DNA from: Candidatus Foliamicus sp.
Lineage (GTDB): Bacteria > Pseudomonadota > Gammaproteobacteria > Steroidobacterales > Foliamicaceae
DNA length: 64,000 nt
Direction of reading: 5' to 3'
NCBI GenBank assembly: GCA_965206955.1
Contig: OZ242252.1
Coordinates: forward strand, 2,179,771 to 2,243,770
Shown here in pieces: positions 1,664 to 62,547 of the stretch; the stretch's first letter is position 1; each line of letters begins with the position of its first letter. Under the pieces are notes generated by a model. That model ran no database searches. It had not been told where the DNA came from and saw only the letters and a program-made list of their open reading frames with translations. Both the position numbers and the translations under genes were made by a program.

Positions 1664-1949
1664 GGGGTGTAGGGGTAAGGGTTTGTGTGGAATAGATTGG
1701 AACGAGGGCGGGACGCCCTCGTCGAGGGCAGGATGCCCTCGTTCCCAGGGGGGATGCGCTGGTTCCCAGGGGGGGAGGTGTTTGTTGTTGTGTCATTGCT
1801 GAGACTAATATCGCTCCAAAGCATTATCGCAACCTTACGCCGCCTATCTCGGGGGCCCTCTTTTTTCCGTTGGTACTTGTGACGGGCAAGCCGGGGTTTG
1901 GTGCGGCGCCCGCAGTACAATGCGTCCGCTCGATTTGGCATTCAAGGCG

Positions 1950-2663
1950 ATGAAGAGAGTACTTGTAATCCGCAACGTAAGTTACGAGACCGAGGGCATG
2001 CTCGAGGGTCTCCTTCGCGACGCAGGGCTTGATCTCAATATCGTGGATTTTCAGGAGGATGCCACGGCTGAGGCGAGCCTTGACGGGCATGCCGGCCTGG
2101 TAGTGATGGGCGGACCTATGGGCGCCAACGATACCGATCGTTTTCCGTACCTGTTGCAGGTTGAGCGCTTGTGCGCAGAGGCAATGGATCGCTCGGTGCC
2201 CCTGGTGGGCGTGTGCCTGGGGGCCCAGATCATGGCCAAGATTCTGGGCACCGAGGTATACCCCAATCCCGTGAAGGAAGTAGGGTGGTACGACCTTGCA
2301 ACAACCCATGCGGCTGCGGGAGATCCCTTGTTCTCCGGGCTTGATTCACGCGAAGTCGTATTGCAATGGCATGGAGATACCTTTGACTTGCCGGAAGGGG
2401 CCGTTCTCCTGGCCTCCTCTCCCGATTGCGTCAACCAGGCATTTCGCTATGGCGAGAACGGCTACGCAATCCAGTTTCATCTTGAAATCATTGAGTCGAT
2501 GATCAGGGAGTGGGTTGGACGGGACGCGGCGCGCGGTTGGTTGGGCCAGGACGGACGCATGAGCGCAGACAGGATTCTCGCCGATACGGTGACTTACATG
2601 GCCCGCTCGGAAGAAATCGGCCGGCGCGTGTATTCGCGTTTTGCTCGTTTGATCGCTGCCTGA
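1950..2663 (+). CDS. class I glutamine amidotransferase (GATase1) family protein
   Basis: MKRVLVIRN..., nucleophile elbow VGVCLGAQIMA, QWHGDTF and QFHLE motifs. The internal ATG at 1950 is preferred over ORF start 1920. Confidence 0.85.
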   Translation: MKRVLVIRNVSYETEGMLEGLLRDAGLDLNIVDFQEDATAEASLDGHAGLVVMGGPMGANDTDRFPYLLQVERLCAEAMDRSVPLVGVCLGAQIMAKILGTEVYPNPVKEVGWYDLATTHAAAGDPLFSGLDSREVVLQWHGDTFDLPEGAVLLASSPDCVNQAFRYGENGYAIQFHLEIIESMIREWVGRDAARGWLGQDGRMSADRILADTVTYMARSEEIGRRVYSRFARLIAA

Positions 2664-2682
2664 GTTTCCTTACGGTCGGGCG

Positions 2683-3951
2683 ATGCATGTAGTGATTGTC
2701 GGTTGTGGCGTTATCGGCGTCACCACGGCCTGGTTTTTGATCCAGGCCGGCGTTCAGGTAACCGTAGTGGAACGCCGGGAAGGGCCGGCGCTGGAAACCA
2801 GCTTCGCCAATGCCAGCATGCTGACGCCGAGCCTGTCGGCGCCGTGGAACTCACCGGGAGTGTGGCTCAAGCTTCTGAAGTATTTGGGCCGCAAGGAAGC
2901 GGCGCTGCTTGTCAGGCCGGCTGCGTTTCCCGGACTGCTGCACTGGGGTTACCGGTTCTTGCTTAACAGCCGTTCCAAGTACCACGAAATTAACCTTCGA
3001 AAGAATTTGAGAATATGCAATTACTCCATTGAAATAATGAAGGAATTACGATCCGACACTGCGGTCGAGTACGAGGCTGATCTTTCGGGTGTAATGGAAG
3101 TGTGCCGGGAAGAAGCTTCGATGCGTGCGGGGCGGGAGCGGGCCCGGGTTCTGGGAGCCGATCAGGTTCCGACCCGGGAATTGACTCCCGCCGAGGTGGT
3201 GGAAATGGAGCCCGCCCTGGCTGCCATTCAGCAGGAGTTGGTGGGCGGTTTCTATTTTCCGGCGGATGAAGTCGGCGACGCTTACAAGTTCAGTTGCAGC
3301 TTGCAGCGCCATTCGGCCCGCCACGGCGCGGTGTTTCGCTTTGGGGAGACAGTGCAGGAAATGCTGGGGAAGCAGGGGCAGGTTCAGGGTGTACGCTTGG
3401 AAGATGGCGAAGAAATTGAAGCCGATCAGGTTGTGGTTGCCGCGGGTAGCTACACGCCCGGGCTTGTGCGCTCCCTGGGTGTTCGGGTGCCCGTTTGTCC
3501 CGCCAAGGGTTACTCCCTGACCACGCCCATGCCCGAAGGATTGCCTCCTCTAGGTCACGCGGTGCTGGATGACGGCTACAAGGCCGGCGTGGTGCCGTTG
3601 GGCGGAAGGCGTATTCGCGTTGGCGGGACGGTGGAATTCACCGGTTTCAACCAGGAGCTCTCGCCTGAGCGGGTGGCGAACCTGCGCAATCTTCTCGCTG
3701 GAGTGCTTCCGCGCCATGCCGAGCGTATCCCGGTGGCGGAAATGCGTCCCTGGTGCGGCCTGCGCCCGGCTTCCCCTGACGGAGTGCCTATCGTCGGCGC
3801 CAGCGGACTGGACGGGTTGTCCCTGGCTACCGGGCACGGACACCTTGGATGGTCGATGGCAGCGGGAACCGGCAAGGCGCTGGCGCAGCAATTGATCGGC
3901 GAACAGCAGGATTTCCCGCTGGCGGACTACCAGCTGGCAAGGTTCGGATGA
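2683..3951 (+). CDS. dadA: FAD-dependent D-amino-acid dehydrogenase (DadA-family) oxidoreductase
   Basis: N-terminal Rossmann motif VVIVGCGVIGVTTAWFL. The 422 aa are collinear with DadA as I recall it (PAKGYSLT, RVGGT.EF.GFN, GLRP.SPDG.P, TGHGHLGWSM). Confidence 0.8.
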   Translation: MHVVIVGCGVIGVTTAWFLIQAGVQVTVVERREGPALETSFANASMLTPSLSAPWNSPGVWLKLLKYLGRKEAALLVRPAAFPGLLHWGYRFLLNSRSKYHEINLRKNLRICNYSIEIMKELRSDTAVEYEADLSGVMEVCREEASMRAGRERARVLGADQVPTRELTPAEVVEMEPALAAIQQELVGGFYFPADEVGDAYKFSCSLQRHSARHGAVFRFGETVQEMLGKQGQVQGVRLEDGEEIEADQVVVAAGSYTPGLVRSLGVRVPVCPAKGYSLTTPMPEGLPPLGHAVLDDGYKAGVVPLGGRRIRVGGTVEFTGFNQELSPERVANLRNLLAGVLPRHAERIPVAEMRPWCGLRPASPDGVPIVGASGLDGLSLATGHGHLGWSMAAGTGKALAQQLIGEQQDFPLADYQLARFG

Positions 3952-5105
3952 TGTTCGAGGCGCGTAAACTCAAGCGTTGCTTCAACCTGGAAGACCTGCG
4001 CAAGGTGGCGCGCAAGCGCCTCCCTTCCCCGATGTATCACTATCTTCGGGGCGGCGCTGACGACGAACGGTCGCTGCACAACAACACGGCCGCGTTTGAC
4101 AACTACGAATTGCTTCCGCGCTACCTGGTCAACGTGGAAAAAGTGGATGCAAGCGTCACGGTTCTGGGCCAGGAGCTGGAGTGGCCGCTGTTCTGTTCCC
4201 CCACGGGCATGTCGCGTATCTTCCACCACGATGGCGAGGTGGGCGCGGTGCGGGCGGCGCATCGATCGGGCACCATGTATTCGCTTTCGACGCTGGGGTC
4301 CACCACCATAGAGGACGTGGCCGCCGCCAGCGAAGGGCCGCGTATGTTCCAGATCTATGTGCTCAAGGACGCCGGTCTGAACCGGGAGTTCATCGAGCGA
4401 TGCAAGGAGGCGAATTACTCGGCGCTGTGCCTGACGGTGGATGTTCCGGTTGGAGGCAACCGGGAGCGCGACTACCACACCGGCATGACGGTTCCCCCGA
4501 AACTTACCCTGATGAGCCGGCTTGACGTGGCCCGCCACCTTACATGGTCCTATCACTATGTCCGCTCAGGACCCTCGGTTATGGCTAATTTTGCTCACCG
4601 GATAAAGGATAGCGACGACACCAACCTGATGGGCTATGTCGGACGCCAATTCGACATGACGGTGAACTGGGATGACGCCGCGCGCATGATCGAGCAATGG
4701 GGCGGGCCGTTCGCCATCAAGGGTGTCATGTGCGCCGAAGATGCCCGCCGCTCGGTCGAGGCCGGCGCCAGCGCAGTAATGCTCTCCAATCATGGGGGAC
4801 GCCAATTGGATGGCGTTCCCGCGCCGGTTGATCTGGTGCGGGAAGTTCGCGACACCATCGGCGGCGACGCCGAGGTGATCGTGGATGGGGGAGTGAGGCG
4901 GGGCACGCACGTACTGAAGGCGCTGGCACTGGGCGCCACCGCCTGTTCCACCGGTCGCGGCTACCTGTACGGTCTCGGGGCCGGCGGCGAAGCGGGCGTG
5001 GGTCGTGCCTTGCAGATACTCCGCGAGGAAGTGGAGCGAGACCTGGCCCTGCTGGGCTGTGTTCGCGCCCGCGACCTGGATCAGCGATTTGTGCGGGAGG
5101 TCTAA
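3948..5105 (+). CDS. FMN-dependent alpha-hydroxy-acid dehydrogenase/oxidase (LldD/glycolate oxidase family)
   Basis: Motifs YHYLRGGADDE, FQIYVLKD, SNHGGRQLDG and DGGVRRG. The ATG at 3948 overlaps the dadA stop (ATGA), and the ORF-track N-terminal extension lies inside dadA. Confidence 0.9.
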   Translation: MMFEARKLKRCFNLEDLRKVARKRLPSPMYHYLRGGADDERSLHNNTAAFDNYELLPRYLVNVEKVDASVTVLGQELEWPLFCSPTGMSRIFHHDGEVGAVRAAHRSGTMYSLSTLGSTTIEDVAAASEGPRMFQIYVLKDAGLNREFIERCKEANYSALCLTVDVPVGGNRERDYHTGMTVPPKLTLMSRLDVARHLTWSYHYVRSGPSVMANFAHRIKDSDDTNLMGYVGRQFDMTVNWDDAARMIEQWGGPFAIKGVMCAEDARRSVEAGASAVMLSNHGGRQLDGVPAPVDLVREVRDTIGGDAEVIVDGGVRRGTHVLKALALGATACSTGRGYLYGLGAGGEAGVGRALQILREEVERDLALLGCVRARDLDQRFVREV

Positions 5106-5122
5106 CGTCAAGGAGCAATGCG

Positions 5123-6097
5123 ATGACAAAGCATGAACCCCCTTCACTCGGTGAAATTCGCGAATACCGGGAAGTTGTCAGAGATCGTGTGGTGCGCACG
5201 CCGGTGCACGAATGGCGTGGCGCGGCGATTCAGAAATTGGCGCCGGACATGCGGATTTCCGTGAAGTTCGAATTGTTGCAGATGACCGGCACATTCAAGG
5301 CCCGCGGCGCCCTGGCCTGGATGCTGTCTTTGCCCAGGGAACAACTTGATAAGGGTGTGACCGCGGTAAGCGCCGGAAATCATGCCATTGCGGTGGCCTG
5401 GGCGGCGCACGTGATGGGCGCTTCAGCTCATGTCGTGATTGTTTCCCCGGCCAACCCGGCGCGAGTCCAGCAGGCGCGCGCCTGGGGCGCAAAGGTGGAG
5501 TTGATAGACAACGCGGAAGCTGCCTTTAATCGAGCCATGAATATCGAACGCGAGGAAGGACGGACCCTGGTGCATCCGTTCGAGGGCCTCCCCATCGCCA
5601 TAGGCACAGGCTCGCTGGCTATGGAATGGCTGGAGCAAGCCCCGAACCTGGACGCCCTGGTGATACCCGTGGGTGGTGGCGGGCTGGTTGCCGGCATAGC
5701 CGCGGCGGCAAAGCGAATACGGCCTGAAATCAGCGTGTATGGGGCCGAACCGGTAGGCGCCGACTCGATGTTCCAGAGCCTCGCCAGGAAAGAGCCCGTT
5801 AATGCGTCCCGGATTGACTCGATTGCCGACAGTCTGCGGGCTCCGAATGCACGTGAATACAGCTTTGCGCTGACCAGCCGTTACATGGATGACCTGGGAC
5901 AGGTGACCGACGATCAAATACGCGATGCCATGCGGCTGATTCTGCGCGAGTTGAAGATGATGGTAGAGCCAGCCTGCGCCACTGCTACAGCGGCCGCTCT
6001 GGGCCCATTACGGGAGCGTCTGCAAGACAAGTCCGTAGGCGTGCTGCTGTGCGGATCAAACATCGATCTCGCCACTTTTCAACGCCTCCTCGCATAA
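5123..6097 (+). CDS. PLP-dependent threonine/serine dehydratase family enzyme
   Basis: PLP-lysine motif LQMTGTFKARGA, a glycine loop VGGGGLVAG and SAGNHA. The 324 aa length fits the catabolic-type fold. Confidence 0.85.
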   Translation: MTKHEPPSLGEIREYREVVRDRVVRTPVHEWRGAAIQKLAPDMRISVKFELLQMTGTFKARGALAWMLSLPREQLDKGVTAVSAGNHAIAVAWAAHVMGASAHVVIVSPANPARVQQARAWGAKVELIDNAEAAFNRAMNIEREEGRTLVHPFEGLPIAIGTGSLAMEWLEQAPNLDALVIPVGGGGLVAGIAAAAKRIRPEISVYGAEPVGADSMFQSLARKEPVNASRIDSIADSLRAPNAREYSFALTSRYMDDLGQVTDDQIRDAMRLILRELKMMVEPACATATAAALGPLRERLQDKSVGVLLCGSNIDLATFQRLLA

Positions 6098-6106
6098 GAC
6101 AACTCT

Positions 6107-6240
6107 CCCCTGGGAGCGAGGGCTTCCAGCCCTCGGAGGACAGGATGTCCTTCTTCCCAGGGAACACCCGAAGCGTCAGGGTCTCTCCTGGGAACGAGGG
6201 CTTCCAGCCCTCGGAGGAAAGGATGTCCTCCTTCCCAGGG
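6107..6240. repeat. REP/BIME-like composite, two ~54-bp units
   Basis: The unit CCTGGGA(G/A)CGAGGGCTTCCAGCCCTCGGAGGA.AGGATGTCCT.CTTCCCAGGG occurs twice. Each has nested hairpins GAGGGC-N5-GCCCTC and AGGACA/TGTCCT. Confidence 0.9.
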
Positions 6241-6250
6241 CTGTAACCCG

Positions 6251-6772
6251 TCAGTAATTGAGGGCCAGTGTTCGCGGTTGGCCGAAACCGGGCAGGCTGA
6301 TCAGGTGAAGACGCCCGGGACCGAAGTCGGCGAACTCCAGAGCGCCGGCGTCCCATTCCGCCAGCAGGGCCGACGCCAGACTGGTGGGGGCCACGATGAT
6401 CACGACCCTACCGCGGTATTGTCTCTCCAGCCCTCGCGCGAAGCCGGCGGGCTCCTCGATCAAAACGTCGGCAATGGGCTCCCGGAGCCGTTCGGCCAGC
6501 AAGCGTACGGTTTCGCGCTCGGGTTCTCCTCCGGCGCTCAAGATTCCGCCGAGCAGCTCCGGCTTGGCGAGATCTCCCACCAGCCGGCTCAATGCCTGGG
6601 AACTCGCCTTTCCTTCGGCGCTGAGCGATGCAGAATCACCGTCTTGCCGCTGGGCGGCTGTCAGCAGCAGCACAGTGGTAGTCGCCTCGCTGCCCTGGAG
6701 GCGCCAGAACAAAACCAGAACGCCGACAAGAAAAGCGGCGACCAGCAGATTGCGGTATCGGGCGCGCATCAA
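6251..6772 (-). CDS. hypothetical membrane-anchored protein (possibly a degenerate histidine-phosphatase fold)
   Basis: 173-aa ORF with an N-terminal TM (LLVAAFLVGVLVLFW). It shows weak SixA-like layout but lacks the RH catalytic dyad. Confidence 0.5.
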   Translation of the reverse strand: MMRARYRNLLVAAFLVGVLVLFWRLQGSEATTTVLLLTAAQRQDGDSASLSAEGKASSQALSRLVGDLAKPELLGGILSAGGEPERETVRLLAERLREPIADVLIEEPAGFARGLERQYRGRVVIIVAPTSLASALLAEWDAGALEFADFGPGRLHLISLPGFGQPRTLALNY

Positions 6773-7155: not shown

Positions 7156-8394
7156 ATGAAAACCATAGTTCGCATATTGGGTGTTTCCTTAGCGCTGTCC
7201 GCGGGGCTGCTTCTCGGAAGTTGCAAGACCGTTGGCGGAAATTCTCCGCCGTCGGGCGGTTCCTCGGTTCCCATGCCTTCGCCCGGCGGCAGTTCCGGAT
7301 CATCCGGTGGCGCGGGCGGTTCGATGGGCTCGTCCGGAGGCTCGATGGGTTCCGCGGGCGGTTCGATGGGCTCGTCCGGAGGCTCGATGGGTTCCGCGGG
7401 CGGTTCGATGGGCTCGTCCGGAGGCTCGATGGGTTCCGCGGGTGGCTCGAAAGGCTCGTCCGGAGGTTCAATGGGTTCCGCGGGTGGTTCGATGGGCTCG
7501 TCCGGAGGCTCGATGGGTTCCGCAGGCGGCTCGATGGGCTCGTCCGGAGGCTCGATGGGTTCCGCGGGCGGCTCGAAAGGCTCGTCCGGAGGCTCGATGG
7601 GTTCCGCGGGTGGCTCGAAAGGCTCGTCCGGAGGCTCGATGGGTTCCGCGGGCGGTTCGATGGGTTCCGCGGGCGGTTCGATGGGTTCCGCGGGCGGTTC
7701 GATGGGCTCGTCCGGAGGCTCGATGGGTTCCGCGGGTGGCTCGAAAGGCTCATCTGGCGGCTCAAGGAGTTCTTCCGGTGGCGCCAGTGGTTCATCTGGA
7801 AGCTCCAGGGGGTCAGCCGGCAGTTCAGCAGGATCGGCCGGTGGCGGCATGGGAACAGGAGGCGGTCCCAGCGGCGGACAAGGCAGTGGCGCAAGCGGCT
7901 CCGGCGGCTCCGGGGATCCCGAAGGCGTTCTGCGTGAATCCATGGAAGGATACGATCGCGAAATCGCTCGTGAGCGCGATGCTATGGCTTCATCCGGGCA
8001 AGGAACACCTGGCGGTAGCGGCGGCATGGGTGGTACGACAGGCGAAGGCGGCGGAGCCGGCGGGCCAATGGTGACTATCCCCAGCATGTCTGGAGGCAGT
8101 TCCGGCGGCGGCCAGGGTGAAGGTGGCGAAGCCGCAGGCGGCAGAGCTAGGGGCGGTGGCAGCGGAGGCGCCGGCGAGAGCGGCCTGGAGGAAGGCGACG
8201 GCAGCAATGCCGGTGACCAACCCGAATCGAAGATTGATATTCCGGAAGATATCGCCGAAGCCACGGGCAGCGAAGACCAGGTAGCGCGGCAGATACGCGA
8301 GGCGGCGGAACAGGAAGAGGATCGACGTATTCGCGACGCGTTGTGGGAAGAATATCGCAGGCACATGGGACTGAAATCAGCGAGGTCGAAGTGA
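7156..8394 (+). CDS. lipoprotein with 21 tandem Gly/Ser heptads and an acidic C-terminal helix
   Basis: MKTIVRILGVSLALSAGLLLGSC lipobox. Positions 7315-7755 hold 21 x 21-bp units encoding GGSMGSS/GGSMGSA/GGSKGSS. C-terminus: EDQVARQIREAAEQEEDRRIRDALWEEY. Confidence 0.8.
   Translation: MKTIVRILGVSLALSAGLLLGSCKTVGGNSPPSGGSSVPMPSPGGSSGSSGGAGGSMGSSGGSMGSAGGSMGSSGGSMGSAGGSMGSSGGSMGSAGGSKGSSGGSMGSAGGSMGSSGGSMGSAGGSMGSSGGSMGSAGGSKGSSGGSMGSAGGSKGSSGGSMGSAGGSMGSAGGSMGSAGGSMGSSGGSMGSAGGSKGSSGGSRSSSGGASGSSGSSRGSAGSSAGSAGGGMGTGGGPSGGQGSGASGSGGSGDPEGVLRESMEGYDREIARERDAMASSGQGTPGGSGGMGGTTGEGGGAGGPMVTIPSMSGGSSGGGQGEGGEAAGGRARGGGSGGAGESGLEEGDGSNAGDQPESKIDIPEDIAEATGSEDQVARQIREAAEQEEDRRIRDALWEEYRRHMGLKSARSK
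7315..7755 (+). repeat. 21-bp (42-bp super-period) coding tandem repeat
   Basis: ggcggttcgatgggctcgtccgga / ggctcgatgggttccgcgggc alternate, with occasional aaa (Lys) variants. I counted 21 heptads in the translation. Confidence 0.9.
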
Positions 8395-12071: not shown

Positions 12072-12420
12072 CTGGGACCGAGGGCATCTTGCCCTCAACG
12101 CCGGGAACGAGGGCATCCTGCCCTCGCCGCTGGGACCGAGGGCATCTTGCCCTCAACGCCGGGAACGAGGGCATCCTGCCCTCGCCGCTGGGACCGAGGG
12201 CATCCTGCCCTCAACGCTGGGACCGAGGGCATCCTGCCCTCGACGCTGGGACCGAGGGCATCCTGCCCTCAACGCTGGGACCGAGGGCATCCTGCCCTCG
12301 ACGCTGGGAACGAGGGCATCCTGCCCTCGCGCATCCTGCCCTCACGCTGGGACCGAGGGCATCCTGCCCTCGACGCTGGGAACGAGGGCATCCTGCCCTC
12401 GCGGATGTCCTCCTTCCCAG
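12072..12420. repeat. tandem array of 11 REP hairpins, 29-bp period
   Basis: GAGGGCATC(C/T)TGCCCTC cores start at 12080, 12109, 12138, 12167, 12196, 12225, 12254, 12283, 12312, 12355 and 12384, plus one half-unit at 12331-12343. There are no unique spacers. Confidence 0.95.
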
Positions 12421-12429
12421 GCTTGAGAA

Positions 12430-14898
12430 ATGACCGCTAAAGTAACGATCACGCTGCCCGATGGGGACCGCATCCTGACGGCGGATGAGCTGCCGATCAC
12501 GCTGCCCGATGGGGACCGCATCCTGACGGCGGATGAGCTGCCGATTCTGTTGGGCAGCGGGCCCGGTTCGCATATCCGCCTTCCCGGTCCGGCAGGCGCC
12601 CCTCCGGCTGCCAGCATCAATCTTCTCGACGAGCGTGCGCTGGTGCAGTGCTCCGCGGGAATCTCCGGCCTGCAACTGAACGGCGAGGCGATCAGCGGCG
12701 CCAAGTTGCTTAGGGAAGGGGACCGGCTTTCCATCGCAGGAGTCGAAGTGGCTCTTGATGGCGTATCCGCCAATTCACTAAGACTCCGGGTGGAATACCT
12801 GGCGAGTGCCTGGGATACCCGGCCTCCGGAAATTGCCGCAGATGAAGAAGGAAGATCCGCGGTTCCCCTGCGCCCGGCCCGATCCAAGGCTACGTCCTCC
12901 CGCCCGTCCAGAGCCCGGCTTTGGCTGCGCCTGGCGGTCGGCCTGATGTTGGCGGTTCTTGGCGCCTGCACGATTTTCGTATTCACCGCCGCCGGCGTAT
13001 TGATTGAAGTCGAGCCGGCGGAAGCTCAAGTGCAGGTCGAGGCGCTCAAACCGATGCCTCACGTCGGACCCCGCTACCTCCTATGGAGCGGCCAGTACCG
13101 GGTGCGCTCCGAACTGGAAAGGTATTACCCGCTGGATGAGCAGATTGAAGTGCGCGCCGTAGGCGGAGAGGAATTTCGTTTCGCCATGCAGCTCTTGCCT
13201 GGCCGCGTGGTGGTGGATACGGTAGCCGGCGCGGAGATTCGCATCGAGGGACAGGAAGGTGTGTTCACCGCCGGTGAGGAAATAGAACTCGAGCCTGGAA
13301 CCTACATAGTGAAGGTGAGTACGCCTCGCTACAAGGAATTAAACGCTGCGCTGGTTGTCAACGGAGGCGGCGAAATCGAGCCGTTCAGCGCGGAATTGGA
13401 ACCGGATTGGGCGGAGATCACGGTGAGCAGCGAGCCGGCCGGGGCGGAATTACGGGCTGAAGGCGAAGTATTGGGCGAAACACCGGCAACCGTGGAATTA
13501 CTCTCCGGAGAACGGGTGCTCTCACTCGCCAAGGCCGGTTTTGCAACGCACAGGGAACAACTTGCCATTGTGGCAGGCGAGCCTCAGATCTTGCCTTCCA
13601 TTCGCCTGCGGCCCGCGTCCGGTGTTCTTAAGGTGCAAACCGACCCGCCGGGCGCGAGCATCACGGTGGACGGAAATTTCCGTGGCGGCTCTCCGGCCAC
13701 TGTGGAAGTAAGCCCTGACCGCGCGCATCGCGTGGTGGTCTCGCGGGCCGGGTATGAATCGCAGGAACGCTCGGTAAGGCTGGGCCGAGGCCAGCAGCAA
13801 TCGCTGAATATCGCTCTCAAGCCGCGCCTGGGCAGGATTCGCGTAATGAGCCGGCCGGCAGGGGCTGAAGTACTGGTAAACGGGAAGGCCGCCGGCAGCA
13901 CGCCAATCGATTTGGACCTGCCATCCACGGAGCACACGCTTGAACTGAGGCTGGAAGGCTACGTGGCCGATTCCCGCCAAGTCATCCCCCAGCCTGCCTA
14001 TCCGCAGGAAATAGCCATAGAACTACTTACCCCGCCGCAGGCCAGACTGGCGGCCCAGCCCACGGAGATCCAGACATCCCTGGGCGCCAGGATGATATTG
14101 CTGCTCCCCGGCGAATTCGAGATGGGATCGCAACGCGGTTCCCAAGGATGGCGTAACAACGAGGTGCGCCGCAAGGTGCGCATCACCAAGCGCTACTATC
14201 TTGGCGTCAAGGAAGTAAGCAACCGGGAGTATAGGGCGATTGTGCCTACGCATACCTCGGGAGCTGAGCGCTTCAAGTCGCTCGCAGCCGACAGCAGTCC
14301 CGCGGTAGATCTGGACTGGCGAGCCGCGGCTGCATTCTGCAATTGGCTGAGTTCGCAAGAGAATCTGCCGCTCCAATACGTAAACCGAAGCGGCCGCCTG
14401 CAGCCGGTTGCCGAGCCGGGGACCGGCTATCGCTTGCCCACCGAAGCCGAATGGGTCTGGGCGGCGCGCTACGCCGGCGGGGTAGGGGATTCACGCTATC
14501 CATGGGGCGAACGCATGCCGCCCTCACCGCTTTCGGGGAATTACGCCGACCAATCCGCCAGCAGTCTGGTGACAATCACCCTAAGTGGCTACAACGATAA
14601 TTTCGCTTTCACCGCCGCGGCCGGCTCGTTCCCCCCCAACGCCAAGGGCTTTTACGATCTGGGCGGCAACGCGTCCGAATGGATGGGCGATTTCTATGGC
14701 ACCGACACGCTGTACCCGAACTTCGAAGTAGACCCGCGCGGTCCCACAGAAGGGCGTTTCCACGTGATCCGTGGCTCCAGCTGGCTTCACGGCGCGCTGC
14801 GCGAACTGCGCTGGGCCTACCGTGACTTTGGCGAAGAAGAGCGAATCGATGTAGGATTTCGTTTGGCGCGCTACGCCGAACTGCAGGAACCGGAATGA
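12430..14898 (+). CDS. FHA-like / TM / multi-PEGA / formylglycine-generating-enzyme (FGE-sulfatase, SUMF1-type) domain protein
   Basis: N-terminal FHA-like fold (LLGSGPGSHIRL...LNGEAI...GDRLSIAG). TM LAVGLMLAVLGACTIFVF. At least 3 PEGA units (SEPAGAELRAEG..., TDPPGASITVDG..., SRPAGAEVLVNG...). C-terminal FGE motifs YRLPTEAEWVWAAR, GNASEWM and RGSSW. Confidence 0.85.
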   Translation: MTAKVTITLPDGDRILTADELPITLPDGDRILTADELPILLGSGPGSHIRLPGPAGAPPAASINLLDERALVQCSAGISGLQLNGEAISGAKLLREGDRLSIAGVEVALDGVSANSLRLRVEYLASAWDTRPPEIAADEEGRSAVPLRPARSKATSSRPSRARLWLRLAVGLMLAVLGACTIFVFTAAGVLIEVEPAEAQVQVEALKPMPHVGPRYLLWSGQYRVRSELERYYPLDEQIEVRAVGGEEFRFAMQLLPGRVVVDTVAGAEIRIEGQEGVFTAGEEIELEPGTYIVKVSTPRYKELNAALVVNGGGEIEPFSAELEPDWAEITVSSEPAGAELRAEGEVLGETPATVELLSGERVLSLAKAGFATHREQLAIVAGEPQILPSIRLRPASGVLKVQTDPPGASITVDGNFRGGSPATVEVSPDRAHRVVVSRAGYESQERSVRLGRGQQQSLNIALKPRLGRIRVMSRPAGAEVLVNGKAAGSTPIDLDLPSTEHTLELRLEGYVADSRQVIPQPAYPQEIAIELLTPPQARLAAQPTEIQTSLGARMILLLPGEFEMGSQRGSQGWRNNEVRRKVRITKRYYLGVKEVSNREYRAIVPTHTSGAERFKSLAADSSPAVDLDWRAAAAFCNWLSSQENLPLQYVNRSGRLQPVAEPGTGYRLPTEAEWVWAARYAGGVGDSRYPWGERMPPSPLSGNYADQSASSLVTITLSGYNDNFAFTAAAGSFPPNAKGFYDLGGNASEWMGDFYGTDTLYPNFEVDPRGPTEGRFHVIRGSSWLHGALRELRWAYRDFGEEERIDVGFRLARYAELQEPE
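12448..12543 (+). repeat. perfect 48-bp in-frame tandem duplication
   Basis: atcacgctgcccgatggggaccgcatcctgacggcggatgagctgccg occurs twice (ITLPDGDRILTADELP x2). Confidence 0.95.
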
Positions 14899-15269
14899 AA
14901 AAGATACCGGGAGTAATCGCGATCATCGCCCTTGCCATCGGGCTGACCTGGGCCGCTGGAAGAGTGGGCGACTGGCTGGGGTTTGCTCAACAGGTGGACC
15001 CTGCCGCGGAAGAGAAGCCCTCCGGGAACCAAGACATCCCCCCTGGGACCGAGGGCATCCTGCCCTCGAATAACGGCTCTCCCGGCGCAGAAACGGACAC
15101 CGAAGGGATCACCCCCGCTCCACCACAAATATCCGCCGAAGTAGCCTCCATCGAAGAAGACCTCGCCCGTATCGAGGAAGCCCTGCAAAGCGACGAAGTC
15201 CTGGAGGAATTCATCCCCTCCGAGCCCCTGTCCGCCGACAACCCCATTCCCTTTCCCACCGACATCTGA
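14895..15269 (+). CDS. small secreted/membrane-anchored acidic protein
   Basis: The ATG overlaps the upstream stop (ATGA). Signal/TM MKKIPGVIAIIALAIGLTWAAG. It contains an in-frame REP hairpin at 15051-15067. Confidence 0.6.
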   Translation: MKKIPGVIAIIALAIGLTWAAGRVGDWLGFAQQVDPAAEEKPSGNQDIPPGTEGILPSNNGSPGAETDTEGITPAPPQISAEVASIEEDLARIEEALQSDEVLEEFIPSEPLSADNPIPFPTDI

Positions 15270-43805: not shown

Positions 43806-43817
43806 CGCAGCCTCCCA

Positions 43818-48490: not shown

Positions 48491-48517
48491 GACGCCCTTT
48501 TCCCAACGGGAATGAGA

Positions 48518-49597: not shown

Positions 49598-49688
49598 AGG
49601 ATTGACTTGGCACGCGCGACGAAGGCAGGATGCGCTCGCTGGGAACGAGGGCGTCTCGCTCCCCGATCAGCGTCGGGGACAGGCTCTC

Positions 49689-49970
49689 GACGAGGGCTGG
49701 AAGCCCTCGGTCCCAGGGATGCGCTCGCTCCAAGGGCAACGCCATCGCTGGCGGAAAGGCTTTCTGCTCTTGACGAGGGCTGGAAGCCCTCGGTCCCAGG
49801 GATGCGCTCGCTCCAAGGGCAACGCCATCGCTGGCGGGAAGGCTTTCTGCTCTCGACGAGGGCTGGAAGCCCTCGGTCCCAGGGATGCGCTCGCTCCAAG
49901 GGCAACGCCATCGCTGGCGGGAAGGCTTTCTGCTCTTGACGAGGGCAGGATGCCCTCGGTCCCAGGATCC
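49689..49970. repeat. 83-bp tandem repeat (3 full units plus a partial) built around REP hairpins
   Basis: Units start at 49689, 49772, 49855 and 49938: GACGAGGGCTGGAAGCCCTCGGTCCCAGGGATGCGCTCGCTCCAAGGGCAACGCCATCGCTGGCGG.AAGGCTTTCTGCTCT. Confidence 0.9.
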
Positions 49971-51186: not shown

Positions 51187-52491
51187 CTGAAATCCTGGCG
51201 CGTCAGTCGCTCAGGCAAGCCGCCGGCGTCTGAGCCTTTCCGGGTTCCGGGGGACAAGTCGATTTCCCACCGGGCCGTCATGCTGGCGGCGCTGGCGGAA
51301 GGAGAGAGCGAGATCGTAAATTTCCTGCCCGGGAGCGATTGCCTGGCCACGGCAGGAGCATTGGAGAGCCTTGGTGTCCCGATTTCCTGGCTGGCGCGGG
51401 ATCGATTGCTGGTGCGTGGAGGAGCGCAGCTTCGCTCGCCCGCTGGAGCATTGGATTGCGGCAACTCGGGAACGGGGATGCGCCTGCTGGCCGGCCTGTT
51501 GGCGGGCCAGGGAATAGAGGCGGAATTGCATGGCGACGCATCATTGAGCCGCCGGCCGATGCGCCGCGTGATCGAGCCTCTCGCAAGGATGGGAGCCAAT
51601 ATCGAGGCTTTGGGGCAGGGCGAGCGGCCACCGCTGCGAATCGGTGCACATTCCGGCCTGAAGGGTATTTCCTGGAATCCGCCCGTGCCCAGCGCACAGG
51701 TGAAGTCCGCTGTTCTATTGGCCGGCCTGAACGCCAAGGGCGAGACCTGTGTGCAGGAATCCACGCCGACCCGCGATCACACGGAAAGGATGTTGCCGAG
51801 TTTCGGGGCCTACATCGAGCGTACCAATGGCCGCGCCTGCCTGACCGGGCAGCATCCCTTGCGGGCCGCGCGGATCAACGTTCCGGGTGACTTTTCTTCG
51901 GCGGCCTTCCTGTTGCTGGCGGGAGTGATTGGTCCTCACAAGGTCCACGTGGGTTCGGTGGGCGTGAATACCGGACGCACAGGATTTCTGCGACTCCTGG
52001 GCCATATGGGCGCCCGCTTCGAGCTTGCGGCCCGGCGGACGGAAGGCGCCGAGCCGGTGGCCGATCTTGCCGCGGTCCCCACTGTTTTGCAGGGAGTGCC
52101 GCTGGCAGCGGACCTGGTCCCGTCAGCCATCGACGAGATGCCGGCGCTTTTCGCCGCCGCGGCCTGCGCGATGGGAGAGACGGAGATTGAGGGGGCTGCC
52201 GAGCTGCGAGTGAAAGAAAGTGACCGGATCACGGCCATGGTTACCGGGCTGAAGTCACTTGGGGTGGAGTGCGAAGAGACTCCCCACGGAGCGCGCATCC
52301 GTGGAGGCTCCGTAGGTGGCGGAGAGGTGGATAGTTATGGGGATCATCGCGTGGCGATGGCATTCTCCATCCTTGCCCTGGTGTCGGAGGGACCAATCGT
52401 GGTTCGCGGAGTGGATGCAGTGGATACCTCCTTTCCCGGGTTTGCCGACACGGCCGCGCAACTGGGTTTGAGTCTTGAGCCGGTTTCCTAG
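51187..52491 (+). CDS. aroA: 3-phosphoshikimate 1-carboxyvinyltransferase (EPSP synthase); start codon uncertain
   Basis: The conserved N-terminal motif RVPGDKSISHRAVMLAALAEG lies upstream of the first canonical start (ATG 51280). The frame is open from 51055 with no ATG/GTG/TTG. CTG at 51187 follows GGGAAGG. Confidence 0.85.
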   Translation: MKSWRVSRSGKPPASEPFRVPGDKSISHRAVMLAALAEGESEIVNFLPGSDCLATAGALESLGVPISWLARDRLLVRGGAQLRSPAGALDCGNSGTGMRLLAGLLAGQGIEAELHGDASLSRRPMRRVIEPLARMGANIEALGQGERPPLRIGAHSGLKGISWNPPVPSAQVKSAVLLAGLNAKGETCVQESTPTRDHTERMLPSFGAYIERTNGRACLTGQHPLRAARINVPGDFSSAAFLLLAGVIGPHKVHVGSVGVNTGRTGFLRLLGHMGARFELAARRTEGAEPVADLAAVPTVLQGVPLAADLVPSAIDEMPALFAAAACAMGETEIEGAAELRVKESDRITAMVTGLKSLGVECEETPHGARIRGGSVGGGEVDSYGDHRVAMAFSILALVSEGPIVVRGVDAVDTSFPGFADTAAQLGLSLEPVS

Positions 52492-52588
52492 CTGGGGGCG
52501 AGGGCGTCTCGCTAGCTGGGAACGAGGGCTTCCAGCCCTCGTCGAGGGCTGGAAGCCCTCGTTCGCAGGGTGGGATGCCCTCGTTCTG
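52491..52588. repeat. REP cluster
   Basis: CTGGGAACGAGGGCTTCCAGCCCTCGTCGAGGGCTGGAAGCCCTCGTTCGCAGG. Confidence 0.9.
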
Positions 52589-52590
52589 CG

Positions 52591-55162: not shown

Positions 55163-55218
55163 GGAACACGCCGGGAGCGAGGGCGTCCCGCCCTCGTCGA
55201 GGGCAAGATGCCCTCGCC
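55163..55218. repeat. REP pair
   Basis: GAGCGAGGGCGTCCCGCCCTCGTCGAGGGCAAGATGCCCTCGCCCC. Confidence 0.9.
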
Positions 55219-55243
55219 CCAAATTGTTCCATGTGGCGGCCTC

Positions 55244-55594
55244 ATGAGATCGCCGGCGTCAGGCAATGCCATCACGCGTTCCGAGCTGGTTCGGATCGTT
55301 ACCCGCAAACTGTTGGAGGATGACCGCTTCACCTATTTCTCCTCGTCCGATCTTGAAGCATCGGTCAAACACGTGATCGACCTGATGGGGCAAACGCTTG
55401 CCACCGGCGGCGGTATTGAGATTCGGGGATTCGGCAGTTTCGGTCTCAGTTACCGTCGGGCGCGCATAGGGCGCAATCCCCGCACCGGGCAGGCGGTTGC
55501 GCTTCCCAGCAAGTACGTCCCCAAGTTTCGGCCCGGAAAGCGTCTTCGCGAGCGGGTCAATGCCGCGGCGAAAGCCGGCGCTGCCAAGAAATAG
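55244..55594 (+). CDS. ihfB: integration host factor subunit beta
   Basis: TRSELVRIV...[46 protein letters not shown]. Start at 55244; the ORF-track start at 55208 lies in a REP. Confidence 0.9.
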
Positions 55595-55919: not shown

Positions 55920-57062
55920 ATGCCTCCCGATCTCCTGATCTCGCTAGCGGGCATCATATTTCTTGGGGTCGGTGTGGGCTATTGGTACGGCCGCTCCGGT
56001 GATTCCAACCGAGGTCTGCACTGGCGCTTCCGAGAGTACGCGGAGGAACTGCCCAAGCGATCCGAAAAAGCCGTAAGCGCCTATCTGCGCGAGGCGGAGA
56101 AAGACCGAAGGGAACCGGGCGCGGCTTTTGAGCTGGCTGCCTATTTTCGTTCCGGGGGCGATTGGCGCCGAGCACTTCAGATCCATGAATCACTGGCGTC
56201 CAGGGAGGATCTTGATGCCGCCACCCGCGCCCATGCCGGGTTGGAGATCGGCGACGACTATCGGGCCGCCGGAATGCTTGATCGGGCCGAGGAAGCCTAT
56301 GCCCGCACTGCCGAGTTCCTTCCCCTGCGCTTGAATGCCCTGGAGCGGCAACTGGGCGTTTGCGAACAATTGTCTGCCTGGGATCGGGCAGTGAATGTGG
56401 CCGAGCAGGTGCGCCAGGAGGATGCTGCTTTGGGATCGCGCCTCCGTTGCCACTACCTTTGCGAGTTGGCGGCCCTCGCCGTCCAGGAAGGAGATCTGCG
56501 CCAGGCGCGCGGTTGCTGGCGCAAAGCAGCACGGCGTGGCGGTAGTGCGGCGCGCCTGCTGGTTGATCGCGCCGTACTCGACACCGCAAACCCGGACAGG
56601 AGCCTCGCCGTTGCGGGCCGAAATCCCGGCGAAGCCGTGCTGATCCTATTGGGATTGTCCAAGACCCTTGACGTTACCTGGGAACGAGGGCTTCCAGCCC
56701 TCGAAGAGGAGTTGAATCAACTGCTGCAGAGTCAAGTTGCCGAAACGCCGGTCATAGGCCGCCCCCTTGCCTGCGCCGTTCTGCTTGCTCCGGAACTGTT
56801 GTGCGCCACGTCCGCCGAATGCCTGTTCGAAGCCTTGCAGGAGACGCTGCCCGCGTACGCAAAGATGTATGCCTCGGGCAAGCCGGCGGATTTCACCCGG
56901 AGTTCACTCAGGAAGCTCAGCAAGGACTTGCAGGCGGTAACTGGCGGCCCGCCGGGCTGGCGCTGCACGGTGTGCGGCAACCAGGACGAGGCCCACAATT
57001 GGCGCTGCGCGGAATGTGGAGCCTGGGAGGCTGCGCGGCTAATCTCGCCTCTTTCTCCCTGA
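55920..57062 (+). CDS. lapB: LPS assembly protein LapB/YciM (TPR plus rubredoxin-type zinc finger)
   Basis: N-terminal TM, ALQIHESL...IGDDYRAAGMLDRAEEAY, and C-terminal CTVCGNQDEAHNWRCAECGAWEA. It carries a REP hairpin in frame at 56678-56703. Confidence 0.9.
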   Translation: MPPDLLISLAGIIFLGVGVGYWYGRSGDSNRGLHWRFREYAEELPKRSEKAVSAYLREAEKDRREPGAAFELAAYFRSGGDWRRALQIHESLASREDLDAATRAHAGLEIGDDYRAAGMLDRAEEAYARTAEFLPLRLNALERQLGVCEQLSAWDRAVNVAEQVRQEDAALGSRLRCHYLCELAALAVQEGDLRQARGCWRKAARRGGSAARLLVDRAVLDTANPDRSLAVAGRNPGEAVLILLGLSKTLDVTWERGLPALEEELNQLLQSQVAETPVIGRPLACAVLLAPELLCATSAECLFEALQETLPAYAKMYASGKPADFTRSSLRKLSKDLQAVTGGPPGWRCTVCGNQDEAHNWRCAECGAWEAARLISPLSP

Positions 57063-58902: not shown

Positions 58903-58978
58903 TGGCTCCCCGGGCCGGACTCGAACCAGCGACAAATTGGTTAACAGCCAACCGCTCTACCAACTGAGCTACCGGGGA
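58903..58978 (-). tRNA. tRNA-Asn (anticodon GTT)
   Basis: Reverse complement TCCCCGGTAGCTCAGTTGGTAGAGCGGTTGGCTGTTAACCAATTTGTCGCTGGTTCGAGTCCGGCCCGGGGAGCCA folds as a cloverleaf by hand: 7-bp acceptor stem, anticodon loop CTGTTAA, TTCGAGT T-loop and encoded CCA. Confidence 0.95.
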
Positions 58979-60236: not shown

Positions 60237-60264
60237 CCCTGGGAACGAGGGCAGCCTGCCCTCG
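60237..60264. repeat. single REP hairpin
   Basis: CCCTGGGAACGAGGGCAGCCTGCCCTCG. Confidence 0.85.
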
Positions 60265-60322
60265 TCACCCCGAACGGATATCTTATCGGCCGCGTTTGCC
60301 ACTGGAATGCTACAGTGCCGAA

Positions 60323-62359
60323 GTGAAGAAAGATTACTTCGATTTGCAGGCTGATTTTGAGTTGGCCGGGGACCAGCCGCAGGCCGTCGATGCCTTGTGC
60401 GAGGGGCTGGAGCAGGGCCTCGCCCGGCAGACCCTGTTGGGCGTGACCGGCTCCGGCAAGACCTTTTCCCTGGCCAACCTGGTGTCCCGTCAGCAGCGGC
60501 CGGCCCTGGTGCTGGCGCCGAACAAGACGCTTGCGGCACAACTCTACGGGGAATTTCGGGACTTCTTTCCCCGTAACCGGGTGGAGTACTTCGTGTCGTA
60601 CTACGACTATTACCAACCCGAAGCCTACGTTCCCACCACCGATACCTATATCGAGAAGGACGCCTCGATCAACAGTCATATCGAACAGATGCGGCTGTCG
60701 GCCACCAAGGCGCTGATGGAGCGCAAGGACACCATCGTGGTGGCTACAGTGTCCGCGATTTACGGGCTGGGCGACCCGGATACCTACTTTCAGATGATCC
60801 TGCACCTGGTGCGGGGTGACCGGATCAATCAGCGGGACCTCTTGAGGCGCCTGGCGGACCTTCAGTACACCCGCAACGAGGCGGAACTGCGCCAGGGAAC
60901 GTTTCGGGTGCGTGGAGAAGTCCTGGATATATTCCCGGCCGAATCGGAGCGCGACGCGGTCCGGGTGCAGCTGTTCGATGACGAAATCGAGGATATTCGT
61001 TTCTTTGATCCGCTGACGGGCGAGATGGCCCGGCGTGTTCCGCGAGTAACCATCTATCCCAAGACTCACTACGTCACTCCCCGCGAGACGCTGGAAGGAG
61101 CGATTGACAAGATCAAGAAGGAACTGCGTGAGCGCCTGAACGTGCTGCGCTCGGAACAAAAGCTGGTGGAAGCGCAGCGCCTGGAGCAACGAACCCTGTT
61201 CGACATTGAAATGATGCTGGAAGTCGGCTACTGCACCGGGATTGAGAACTACAGCCGCTATCTATCCGGGCGCAACCCGGGCGAACCGCCGCCCTGCCTG
61301 TTCGACTACGTGCCGGCCAATGCCTTGCTGTTCGTAGACGAAAGCCACGTGACGCTGCCGCAGCTGGGCGGCATGTTCCGGGGCGACCGTTCGCGTAAGG
61401 AAACCCTGGTTCAATACGGATTCCGCCTGCCCTCGGCGCTCGACAACCGGCCCTTGAGATTCGAGGAATTCGAGCGCATTTCACCCCAGACCATCTATGT
61501 CTCAGCGACGCCGGGGGCGTTCGAGCATGAGCATTGCGATGCTCTGGTTGAGCAGGTCGTGCGTCCCACCGGGCTGGTCGATCCGCAGGTGGACGTGCGC
61601 CCGGCGTCACGCCAGGTGGATGATGTCCTGTCCGAGATCGCCTTGCGGGTGGAACGCAAGGAACGCGTTCTGATTACCACGCTGACCAAGAGAATGTCCG
61701 AGGACCTGACGGAATTCATGGAGGAACATGGCGTTCGCGTGCGCTACCTGCACTCCGACATCGATACGGTGGAAAGGGTGGAAATCATCCGCGATTTGCG
61801 CCTGGGGGTGTTTGATGTACTGGTGGGCATTAACCTGTTGCGGGAGGGGCTGGACATGCCGGAAGTGTCGCTGGTGGCCATTTTCGATGCCGACAAGCAA
61901 GGCTTTCTGCGGTCCGAGCGTTCGCTGATTCAGACCATAGGACGCGCGGCGCGCAACCTCAACGGCATGGCCATCCTGTATGCCGACAAGAGCACCAGCG
62001 CGATCCGCGGGGCGTTGGAGGAAACCAACCGCCGCCGCGGCAGACAGCTGGAATTCAACCGGGAGTGGGGCATCGAGCCGCGCGGAATTCAGAAGGACGT
62101 GGCCGATATCATGGAGGGCGCGGTAGTCAGGGGACGCAGCCGGCGGCGACCGGCGCGGAGGGTTGCGGAGCGGATGTCCGAATACCGTGCACTGACGCCG
62201 GAACAGGTGATGAAGAAGATCAAGCAACTCGAGAAGCGCATGTATCGGCATGCGCAGGACCTGGAATTCGAGGAGGCTGCGTCGCTGCGCGACGAGATCA
62301 TGCTGCTGCGCCGTGATGGCCTGGGTATTCCCGACCAGGACAAAGCCTTGGCTTCCTGA
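60323..62359 (+). CDS. uvrB: excinuclease ABC subunit B
   Basis: [17 protein letters not shown], Walker [10 protein letters not shown] and a C-terminal UVR domain. GTG at 60323 gives ~678 aa. The ORF-track start at 59888 is antisense to the aminotransferase gene. Confidence 0.95.
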
Positions 62360-62382
62360 ACCGCGAGCGCAGGAAGCCCTCC

Positions 62383-62547
62383 CCCTGGGAACGAGGGCTT
62401 CCCCCCTGGGAACGAGGGCTTCCAGCCCTCGACGAGGGCAAGATGCCCTCGCTCCTAGCGTGTTCCCTATGCATCAGCACAGCGGTACCCGCGGCGAGTG
62501 CTCCCAGCGAAGCCCTCCCCCCTGGGAACGAGGGCTTCCAGCCCTCA
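62383..62547. repeat. REP composite (third copy of the MITE-like architecture)
   Basis: REP pair, then GTGTTCCCTATGCATCAGCAC...GCTCCCAG, then CCTGGGAACGAGGGCTTCCAGCCCTC. Confidence 0.85.

Follow-up and report, generated by a model that had tools for sequence, protein, structure and literature searches.

In a 64-kb stretch of the Candidatus Foliamicus genome (the window), we observed hairpins of the form GAGGGC-N5-GCCCTC at 17 loci. These hairpins are a very dense family of repetitive extragenic palindromes (REPs) of Candidatus Foliamicus, an uncultured marine gammaproteobacterial genus that is apparently host-associated and of which we found no mention in the literature searched. We consider it very probable that the family has a dedicated partner in this genus, an HUH/tyrosine transposase of the kind known as REP-associated tyrosine transposase (RAYT, or TnpA-REP). 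The repeats share a conserved tag and a covarying stem, related genomes encode a RAYT between copies of the same repeat, and the lapB homologue differs from most of its orthologues by the insertion of a single copy.

A tagged hairpin repeated through the window

The window contains 42 exact GAGGGC-N5-GCCCTC hairpins, while 100 dinucleotide-preserving shuffles of the same sequence gave an expectation of 0.02 and a maximum of 1. When the compensated stem variant GAGGAC/GTCCTC is added, the count rises to 44 hairpins in 17 clusters, which start at 1704, 6118, 12080, 15051, 21988, 24255, 25830, 29276, 30904, 32108, 48406, 49692, 52524, 55179, 56686, 60247 and 62414. Hence, the original prediction of a dense family at 17 loci is borne out, and its coordinates agree with ours. 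It had also noted that the N5 sequences come in reverse-complement pairs, and this is what we counted: ATCCT 12 and AGGAT 7, TTCCA 8 and TGGAA 5, ATCTT 4 and AAGAT 5, and GTCCC 1 and GGGAC 1, with both GAGGAC-stem hairpins included. What did not stand is the idea that these five bases form the loop. The outer two make a covarying seventh base pair around a loop of 3 nt, whose sequence is TCC or TCT, or GGA or AGA when the opposite strand is read. This seventh position is Watson-Crick in all 44 window copies (A-T in 29, T-A in 13, G-C in 2), and a C-G foot pair extends the stem to 8 bp.

The asymmetry of the loop gives every copy an orientation. Read in this way, the REP unit is 24-26 nt long and consists of an unpaired 5' tag, CTGGGA(A/G/C)C, followed by the stem C-GAGGGC-N / N'-GCCCTC-G with its TCC or TCT loop, a stem-loop palindrome within the 20-40 bp typical of REPs. 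The consensus of 309 oriented copies from the window and other Foliamicus loci is C (93%), T (83%), G (93%), G (96%), G (96%), A (93%), A/G/C (66, 22 and 11%) and C (85%), then GAGGGC-N-TCY-N'-GCCCTC and a final G (80%). In the window alone (43 oriented copies), conservation is 88-97% at every base of the 5' flank C-T-G-G-G-A, in agreement with the earlier description of hairpins framed by conserved flanking sequence. Singlets have no conserved 3' tag.

We measured covariation in a non-circular way, choosing copies on the tag and left arm alone and setting aside half-units and indel variants, which left 87 distinct sequences. In these, 94.1% of stem cells pair. Five of the eight stem pairs have changes on both sides, amounting to 59 compensatory cells, and none of 500 shuffles matched this. 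The covarying pairs include the seventh (A-T/G-C/T-A), the fifth stem pair (G-C/A-T) and the foot (C-G/G-C). Only about 7 cells are G-T (G-U) wobbles, against the 59 full compensations; pairing as DNA therefore fits the data at least as well as pairing as RNA.

The repeats occur as singlets, doublets, same-orientation arrays of 29-nt units, runs of 20-21-nt half-units, an 83-nt array and composites, and the architectures listed in the original prediction were recovered with Tandem Repeats Finder and an alignment of three loci. The former reported a 29-nt period with 8.9 + 2.5 copies (12072-12401), an 83-nt period with 3.4 copies (49683-49966) and half-unit runs of 20-21 nt at 30851, 48327 (4.4 copies) and 62381; the latter defined composites of 130-180 nt at 24246, 32099 and 62383. 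In a doublet, present at about 10 of the 17 loci, two REPs stand tail-to-tail 1-3 nt apart to give about 55 nt with the layout tag-hairpin-G(N)C-hairpin-tag'. Two folds are predicted for a doublet, a single long hairpin or a pair of hairpins carried by an outer stem; the predicted energies lie between -22 and -33 kcal/mol and the z-scores between -7 and -11. Doublets thus have the form of a REPIN, an inverted REP pair whose halves and spacer make a long hairpin, with a spacer of just 1-3 nt. The original prediction had called the family REP/BIME-like. The first term holds, but the second (for bacterial interspersed mosaic element) does not fit the long arrays, which are direct repeats: all 11 units of the 29-nt array have the + orientation, each of the four intact hairpins in the 83-nt array has the - orientation, and only within doublets does orientation alternate.

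A second conserved module, TGTTCCCTGCGCG(Y)CAGCGCAGCGGCGCCCGCTGCGAAAACTCCCAG, lies 3' of many doublets, with 3 copies in the window (24302-24368, 32155-32205 and 62461-62520) and about 25 in Foliamicus loci. It contains the small palindromes CTGCGC/GCGCAG and GCAGCGG/CCGCTGC. The module may be another, diverged type of REP.

The loci of the window are as follows, with the strand where one is assigned and with REP(+) and REP(-) for the two orientations of the unit.

1696-1775: two adjacent hairpins with a GTTCCCAG-type tail repeat; the neighbours are a divergent response-regulator gene (989-1663, minus) on one side and a GATase gene (1920-2663, plus) on the other
6107-6240: two copies of REP(+) fused to a degenerate GAGGAC-type REP(-), just past the stop of a PALP-enzyme gene (5123-6097)
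12072-12421, plus strand: 11 REP(+) head-to-tail with a 29-nt period, a degenerate REP(-) last, between Ser/Thr kinase and PEGA/FGE-sulfatase genes
15039-15068, plus strand: single REP, in frame (PPGTEGILPS), inside a small signal-peptide open reading frame (ORF) at 14895-15269
21980-22013, minus strand: single REP(-) immediately upstream of ppx, within the 3' tail of the ppk ORF, which is not conserved
24246-24420: composite of a doublet, the module TGTTCCCTGCGCGTCAGCGCAGCGG...GAGAACTCCCAG and a REP(-), upstream of ppk
25821-25875: tail-to-tail doublet (REPIN-like) in the divergent intergenic region before a MotA/ExbB-family gene
29267-29360: doublet (second arm the GAGGAC/GTCCTC variant) and one REP(+), 3 nt past the stop of ORF 28167-29264
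30851-30929: two 21-nt half-units and a doublet, between SDR and acyl-CoA dehydrogenase genes
32099-32236: composite of a doublet, the conserved module and a REP(-), located between convergent genes, with the tag directly against the acyl-CoA dehydrogenase gene's TAG stop
48316-48510: five 20-nt half-units, a doublet and two degenerate REP(-), between gyrA and serC
49621-49966: degenerate REPs, then the 83-nt tandem array (3.4 copies), its unit being a degenerate REP(+), an intact REP(-) and a 30-nt spacer
52491-52590: degenerate REP and a perfect doublet in the aroA-cmk interval, with the tag against a TAG stop
55171-55260: doublet and partial conserved module, between rpsA and an HU/IHF-family gene; near-identical in the related scaffold L097
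56677-56702, plus strand: 24-nt REP singlet, in frame (adds WERGLPAL), in the lapB homologue (55920-57062)
60238-60264, plus strand: single REP with seventh pair A-T and loop GCC, upstream of uvrB
62365-62547: composite of half-units, a doublet, the conserved module and a REP(+), between uvrB and a DsbC-like gene

At the first of these loci, the left hairpin (1704-1720) has a GGA loop yet sits beside a 5'-tag-like TTGGAAC, so that the orientation of its loop is flipped relative to the usual doublet.

As expected of REPs, most copies are extragenic: 41 of the 44 hairpins lie outside homology-supported ORFs. The hairpin at 15051 is intragenic, as originally stated, and two others had been counted among 16 intergenic or terminal sites: the one at 56686 is not intergenic but in frame in lapB, and the one at 21988 falls in the 3' tail of ppk. 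All three copies are translated in frame. The last ~50 codons of the ppk ORF, which include this hairpin, have no counterpart in homologues; a search with the tail was dominated by distant Ppk homologues and returned no close orthologue. An orthologue of ORF 14895-15269 (in L007) carries two more 21-nt half-units, also in frame. In-frame REPs inside genes have been reported earlier (PMC3733652, PMC6006769). Read directly, the REP sequence is free of stop codons in all six frames. For this reason REP arrays give rise to long spurious ORFs, and to proteins whose ends are REP-encoded, when metagenome-assembled genomes (MAGs) are annotated. ORFs of this sort occur throughout the window and in a relative (L003:2436-5231), and the called RAYT proteins P0001-P0003 begin or end in REP peptides such as PWERGRPALE and KEGILPSARAGSPRSQR.

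Might the hairpins be kept mainly as RNA elements (3' stabilisers, modulators of translation or decay, or terminators), with their abundance reflecting selection by the host? Their positions invite the question, since most loci begin 0-25 nt past the stop of a same-strand upstream gene and the tag directly abuts the TAG stop at 32099 and 52491. The stems are also GC-rich and stable, their covariation implies that the structure is selected, and REPs of E. coli stabilise upstream mRNA according to work cited in PMC3733652. We nonetheless regard this as a rather unlikely account of the family. No T-run follows the stems: T does not exceed 32% at any of 16 downstream positions, where the consensus is instead G-[A/T]-C-G..., and none of the 13 terminator-like sites at 47-63 kb is a REP. 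Without a T-tail the hairpins are not canonical intrinsic terminators, a candidate identity that we rejected, and the role in termination suggested by the original prediction finds no support here. Singlets also occur in both orientations relative to transcription, some of them in divergent promoter regions (1704, 25830). The scarcity of G-T cells (~7 against 59 compensations) is a better fit to DNA pairing, and a scan of the window with Rfam at gathering thresholds matched a tRNA only and no family for the hairpins. A function in RNA is compatible with a REP/RAYT origin, and by analogy with E. coli an effect of the REPs on mRNA 3'-end stability or on translation termination is plausible.

The REP family extends well beyond the window. 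The window is ~90% identical to the Candidatus Foliamicus MAG chromosome OZ252226.1 (86-94% in three colinear blocks at ~1.11-1.19 Mb) and ~76% identical to OZ250178.1, and its gene content (gyrA, serC, aroA, cmk, rpsA, an HU/IHF-family gene, lapB, uvrB, ppk-ppx and TonB-dependent receptors) fits a Foliamicus origin. A genome scan with the query GGGAACGAGGGC-N5-GCCCTC returned at least 88 stretches. Among the matches listed, about 68 of 88 come from three Candidatus Foliamicus sp. MAG chromosomes, at positions spread over 0.1-3.4 Mb, which answers the concern that the motif might be confined to the window; a few come from other gammaproteobacterial MAGs, and the remainder are scattered, chance-like single matches. 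We counted 102 hairpins in 176 kb sampled from OZ253475.1, 83 in 192 kb of OZ252226.1 and 44 in the 64 kb of the window (0.69/kb). The more than 100 dispersed copies per genome expected of a REP family are thus reached in a small sample of one chromosome. In Foliamicus stretches not chosen for the motif, with the RAYT region left out, density is 0.56-2.1/kb, and extrapolation to ~3.2 Mb suggests thousands of copies per genome.

Two lower-GC stretches of the window, 15.1-21.9 kb and 32.2-48.3 kb, are free of REPs; they contain an insertion sequence (IS) and TonB-dependent receptors and look like later acquisitions. Within the second, positions 32237-45700 form a REP-free segment of ~13-16 kb at 55-59% GC that encodes two TonB-dependent receptors, an FG-GAP/ASPIC protein and a redoxin-domain protein. 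This segment may itself be a later acquisition, and the matching region of a relative (L031) has an extra insert of ~3 kb. In the first, the IS is an ORF with a DDE_Tnp_1 transposase domain (15458-17107) that adjoins a TonB-dependent receptor gene.

A RAYT gene between REPs and a new insertion in lapB

E. coli RayT (from NC_000913.3) matches an ORF of OZ252226.1 at ~2.046 Mb (locus L003) with a value of 1.3e-12. The protein reconstructed from this locus scores 91.2 bits against the NCBIfam equivalog model REP_Tyr_transpos (NF047646; cutoff 80) and 30 bits against Pfam Y1_Tnp (PF01797; cutoff 23), above the curated threshold in each case, but just 17.6 bits against the IS200 equivalog (cutoff 55). 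Among solved structures, the best match of the Foliamicus RAYT is 4ER8, the E. coli TnpA-REP. A protein search found intact relatives that are 90% identical (P0001, on a 3.11-Mb contig), 78% identical (P0002, in OZ250178.1-type genomes) and 75% identical (P0003/P0175, in OZ253475.1). The alignment is invariant at the HUH motif NHVH, at Y-I-H-Q/E-N-P-V-K and at W94 and R104, and the first two motifs align with H61/H63 and Y115 of E. coli RayT. The proteins thus have both the HUH motif and a catalytic tyrosine in the Y-x-x-x-N-P context of a RAYT. R replaces Q95 in the Foliamicus RAYT, and the clade, at 200-246 amino acids (aa), has an insertion of ~45 aa after the first strand.

The gene occupies the same slot in four relatives (L003, L090, L091 and L093), downstream of rplQ and between genes for an SNF-family transporter and an RND-MFP protein, and it is intact at this slot in at least three species. 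In all four loci the REPs bracket it, with a tagged REP(+) upstream and a REP(-) downstream that often overlap the called gene ends. A RAYT flanked by the same REPs that it would act upon is the arrangement called a REPtron, found here in relatives only. The original prediction had proposed a search for just such a gene.

Evidence for insertion comes from the lapB homologue. This protein is 380 aa long in the window and in OZ252226.1 but 372 aa in essentially all of the other 47 orthologues, one of which is 88-90% identical, and the difference is the peptide WERGLPAL. The empty site in L097 reads ...GACGTTAC|CGAAGA... (GTTAC|CGAAG across the junction). The filled site has exactly 24 additional nt, (C)TGGGAACGAGGGCTTCCAGCCCT(C), and no target-site duplication is visible. 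Judging from the aligned sites, one lineage has cleanly gained a REP singlet here.

The lapB site also bears on whether the repeats could be MITEs (miniature transposable elements with inverted repeats) moved by a DDE-type IS, for example that of ORF 15458-17107, or else attC arrays of an integron or arrays resembling CRISPR. The window does contain an ORF with a DDE_Tnp_1 domain, and a 29-nt period is within the size range of CRISPR repeats, but we consider all of these identities very improbable. A MITE of a DDE transposon was rejected because filled and empty lapB sites differ without any duplication; the insertion also lacks terminal inverted repeats beyond the hairpin, and the gene consistently bracketed by the repeats encodes a Y1 HUH transposase, not a DDE enzyme. 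A CRISPR array was rejected because the 29-nt units abut with no spacers between them. No cas gene, integrase or attC-like architecture was seen, and integron attC arrays were rejected on this last ground.

How might a RAYT generate such a family? We infer, from what is described for E. coli TnpA-REP and IS200/IS605, that the Foliamicus enzyme cleaves or mobilises these REPs. On single-stranded DNA, such as at a replication fork, it would bind the folded hairpin, read the 5' tag, and cleave and rejoin the strand, so that new REP copies could be seeded without target-site duplication. Inserted loci would then persist for long periods while slippage or unequal exchange remodelled them into 29-nt direct arrays, 20-21-nt half-unit runs and the 83-nt array, and stem variants would be replaced genome by genome.

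Turnover of the loci and a cassette in another phylum

Polymorphism among relatives, which the original prediction had made a test of its reading, is seen in lapB and, between sequences about 90% identical, in the arrays as well. At 12072, the 11 REP(+) of the window correspond to 2 REP(+) and 1 REP(-) at the orthologous site of OZ252226.1. The remaining array comparisons involve L097, a metagenome scaffold in which the assembler may have collapsed arrays, so that the comparison with the OZ252226.1 chromosome is the safer one: the 83-nt array has ~4 hairpin units in the window where L097 has 1, 5 half-units at the gyrA-serC locus compare with 3 in L097, which also has one REP fewer there, and the aroA-cmk locus is a doublet in the window and three direct REP(+) in L097.

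Stems vary between genomes too. The orthologous REP at 60247 has seventh pair and loop A-T/GCC in the window, T-A/TCC in L029 and A-T/TCC in L097. The doublet at 30851 is kept at the orthologous site of a 76%-identical genome (L075) as a G-C stem variant, and the preferred seventh pair is genome-specific, being A-T/T-A in the window and OZ252226.1 and G-C in OZ250178.1 and OZ253475.1. In the segment 47.6-61.4 kb, the window and L097 both have REPs at five of six loci, which differ mainly in copy number. The overall pattern, as these alignments present it, is one of long-lived loci with fast internal remodelling and occasional new insertions.

Several points weigh against the REP/RAYT explanation. 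All of the evidence is comparative, drawn from sequences. Neither phmmer with E. coli RayT nor tblastn with the Foliamicus RAYT found a RAYT in the 64-kb window, and a Pfam scan of the window ORFs that are bracketed by REPs (24.5-25.8 kb and 29.7-30.8 kb) detected no Y1 domain; on the sequences compared, the enzyme is known from relatives and not from the window's own genome. In the closest of these relatives, the RAYT frame (L003:5526-6200) is broken by a single in-frame TAA (LLK*WEEEL) in an ORF that is otherwise conserved. The TAA marks either a recent pseudogene or a recoded or erroneous site, and it makes current activity in that lineage uncertain. The Foliamicus RAYT has R where REP-associated subclasses conserve Q95. 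Across the 309 copies, the tag at the hairpin foot is neither GT[AG]G nor CGTC, and it is GT[AG]G that defines canonical RAYT substrates (PMC6006769). Most of the differences between relatives are local changes in copy number, which need no transposase, and array collapse may contribute to those seen with L097. Finally, the one clean new insertion is a 24-nt singlet and not a doublet, which misfits a model in which the REPIN is the replicator and the doublet the copied unit, although a single event is weak evidence on this point.

Some of these observations would also suit fossil repeats that are no longer mobilised, whose diversity arose by slippage, unequal crossing-over and gene conversion while the RAYT decayed or found other employment. 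The in-frame stop in the closest relative's RAYT, the sharing with L097 of five of six loci at 47.6-61.4 kb with mostly copy-number differences, and the retention of the 30851 doublet in a genome just 76% identical all point in this direction, as do the lower-GC segments, which are REP-free and thus give no sign of recent invasion. We hold this explanation to be possible but doubtful. The precise 24-nt gain in lapB occurred in one sub-lineage at a place with no earlier repeat on which to slip, intact RAYTs with conserved catalytic residues stand at the same slot in at least three species, and the copies are near consensus with compensatory stem changes instead of decaying. A REP family served by a RAYT remains our preferred explanation.

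The same hairpin core, CGAGGGC-N-TCC-N'-GCCCTCG, also flanks RAYTs with 60-68% identity to the Foliamicus enzyme, but there it has other 5' tags (L094, L095). The tag is CCCGGGAYC beside P0008, on a 5.6-Mb chromosome, and CCCGGAGC beside P0020, in a gammaproteobacterial MAG. This hints that tag and enzyme co-vary while the stem stays fixed. In a Thermodesulfobacteriota MAG (OZ220710.1; L047), a doublet of the Foliamicus type (4031-4084), a RAYT 67% identical to that of Foliamicus (4188-4727) and a REP(-) (4779-4803) are nested in frame within ORF 2697-6380. The host ORF encodes a 1227-aa DUF1156/D12-type DNA methyltransferase with no internal stop. From its layout, this looks like movement of a whole cassette and its transfer between phyla, which is unusual because REPIN-RAYT systems are described as almost exclusively vertical. 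In the protein search, many RAYT homologues carried the JGI name 'putative DNA methylase', and nesting of RAYTs in methylase genes may be common.

Tentatively, and with less confidence than in the REP/RAYT assignment itself, we suggest that the CTGGGAAC-tagged 8-bp hairpin and its RAYT clade (NHVH / W-R / YIHxNP, ~45-aa insertion) could form a REP superfamily beyond the two described tag classes, GTAG and CGTC. Unlike what the REPIN model describes, such a superfamily would spread as 24-nt singlets, which genes would tolerate because they are stop-free in six frames, and its whole REP-RAYT-REP cassette would move horizontally between phyla sharing a habitat. The methylase nesting in L047, and the 60-68% identical RAYTs of other large genomes that keep the hairpin core with different tags, are our reasons for proposing horizontal movement of the cassette.

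Three further features of the window are recorded here. Immediately behind the REP array, the PEGA/FGE-sulfatase gene carries at its 5' end a perfect 48-nt duplication (12446-12545; 2.1 copies, 100% match). A 42-nt tandem repeat at 7311-7782 (10.8 copies, 90% match; alternatively a 63-nt period) lies in a frame of very high GC3 and is unrelated to the REPs. A tRNA gene is located at 58906-58978 on the minus strand.

Comparison with known repeat systems

We compared the Foliamicus repeats with the features that define RAYT/REPtron (PMC2817692, PMC6006769) and REPIN-RAYT (10.1101/2021.07.10.451892) systems, and the matching features are those described for REPs, RAYTs and REPINs in 10.1101/2021.07.10.451892, PMC6006769 and PMC3733652. 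Like the REP/RAYT systems of E. coli (4ER8), Pseudomonas and Stenotrophomonas (PMC2817692, PMC3479197, PMC6006769), that of Foliamicus consists of short GC-rich palindromes with an unpaired 5' tag. Its copies are likewise many, dispersed and mostly extragenic, and occur as singlets and inverted dimers; a Y1 HUH gene lies between inverted REPs at a conserved chromosomal position; insertion proceeds without target-site duplication; and copies are occasionally found in frame in genes. The tag is different, CTGGGA(A)C in place of GT[AG]G or CGTC. The RAYT, with its insertion after the first strand, is longer (200-246 aa against 165 aa), and its motifs NHVH / W-R / YIH[QE]NP match no single subclass line in Table 1 of PMC6006769. 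The density of REPs appears to be several-fold above the hundreds per genome that are usually cited.

Similarities to REPINs (PMC3116915, 10.1101/2021.07.10.451892) are the inverted doublets able to form a single long hairpin, a RAYT with the look of a single-slot, vertically inherited gene, loci that persist across species, and genome-specific sequence populations. In contrast to the ~100 nt typical of a REPIN, the Foliamicus doublet measures ~55 nt with its 1-3 nt spacer. Unlike REPINs, too, the sole clean insertion is a 24-nt singlet, long same-orientation arrays are common, and the same hairpin with a related RAYT is present in another phylum. With enterobacterial BIMEs the family shares mosaic intergenic clusters of REPs with other motifs, here the module TGTTCCCTGCGCG..CTCCCAG, but BIMEs alternate REP orientation at regular spacing, whereas the 29-nt and 83-nt arrays of Foliamicus keep one orientation.

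A further likeness is to the atypical REP-like structures of TnpA-Y1 subclass 2.6 and class 3 (PMC6006769), in which hairpins without GT[AG]G flank a Y1 gene. REP-like repeats of these types can reach high copy number, with ~600 in Solibacter usitatus (PMC6006769). The subclass 2.6 motifs YIH[QN]NP and NH[LIV]H resemble those of the Foliamicus RAYT, making this the closest line of Table 1 on a comparison of published motifs only (PMC6006769). Subclass 2.6, however, is found mainly in Bacteroidetes and has weak secondary structures (PMC6006769), whereas Foliamicus is a member of the Gammaproteobacteria with a strong 8-bp GC helix.

We conclude that the Foliamicus system is of the REP/RAYT (REPtron) type, already known, with REPIN-like doublets; it has most of the features by which membership is judged and is no new kind of system. 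Its unusual traits are the non-GTAG tag, the very high density, and the occurrence of this hairpin and its RAYT clade in other phyla. Few repeat populations persist in compact bacterial genomes, and REP-RAYT systems belong to them; both the spread of these systems and their role for the host are debated. To that debate the Foliamicus case supplies a pair of empty and filled sites that defines a 24-nt insertion unit, together with REP-encoded peptides in lapB, a gene of the essential type. Its REPs are a useful natural data set for studying the specificity of RAYTs for their REPs and for weighing vertical against horizontal inheritance of such systems.

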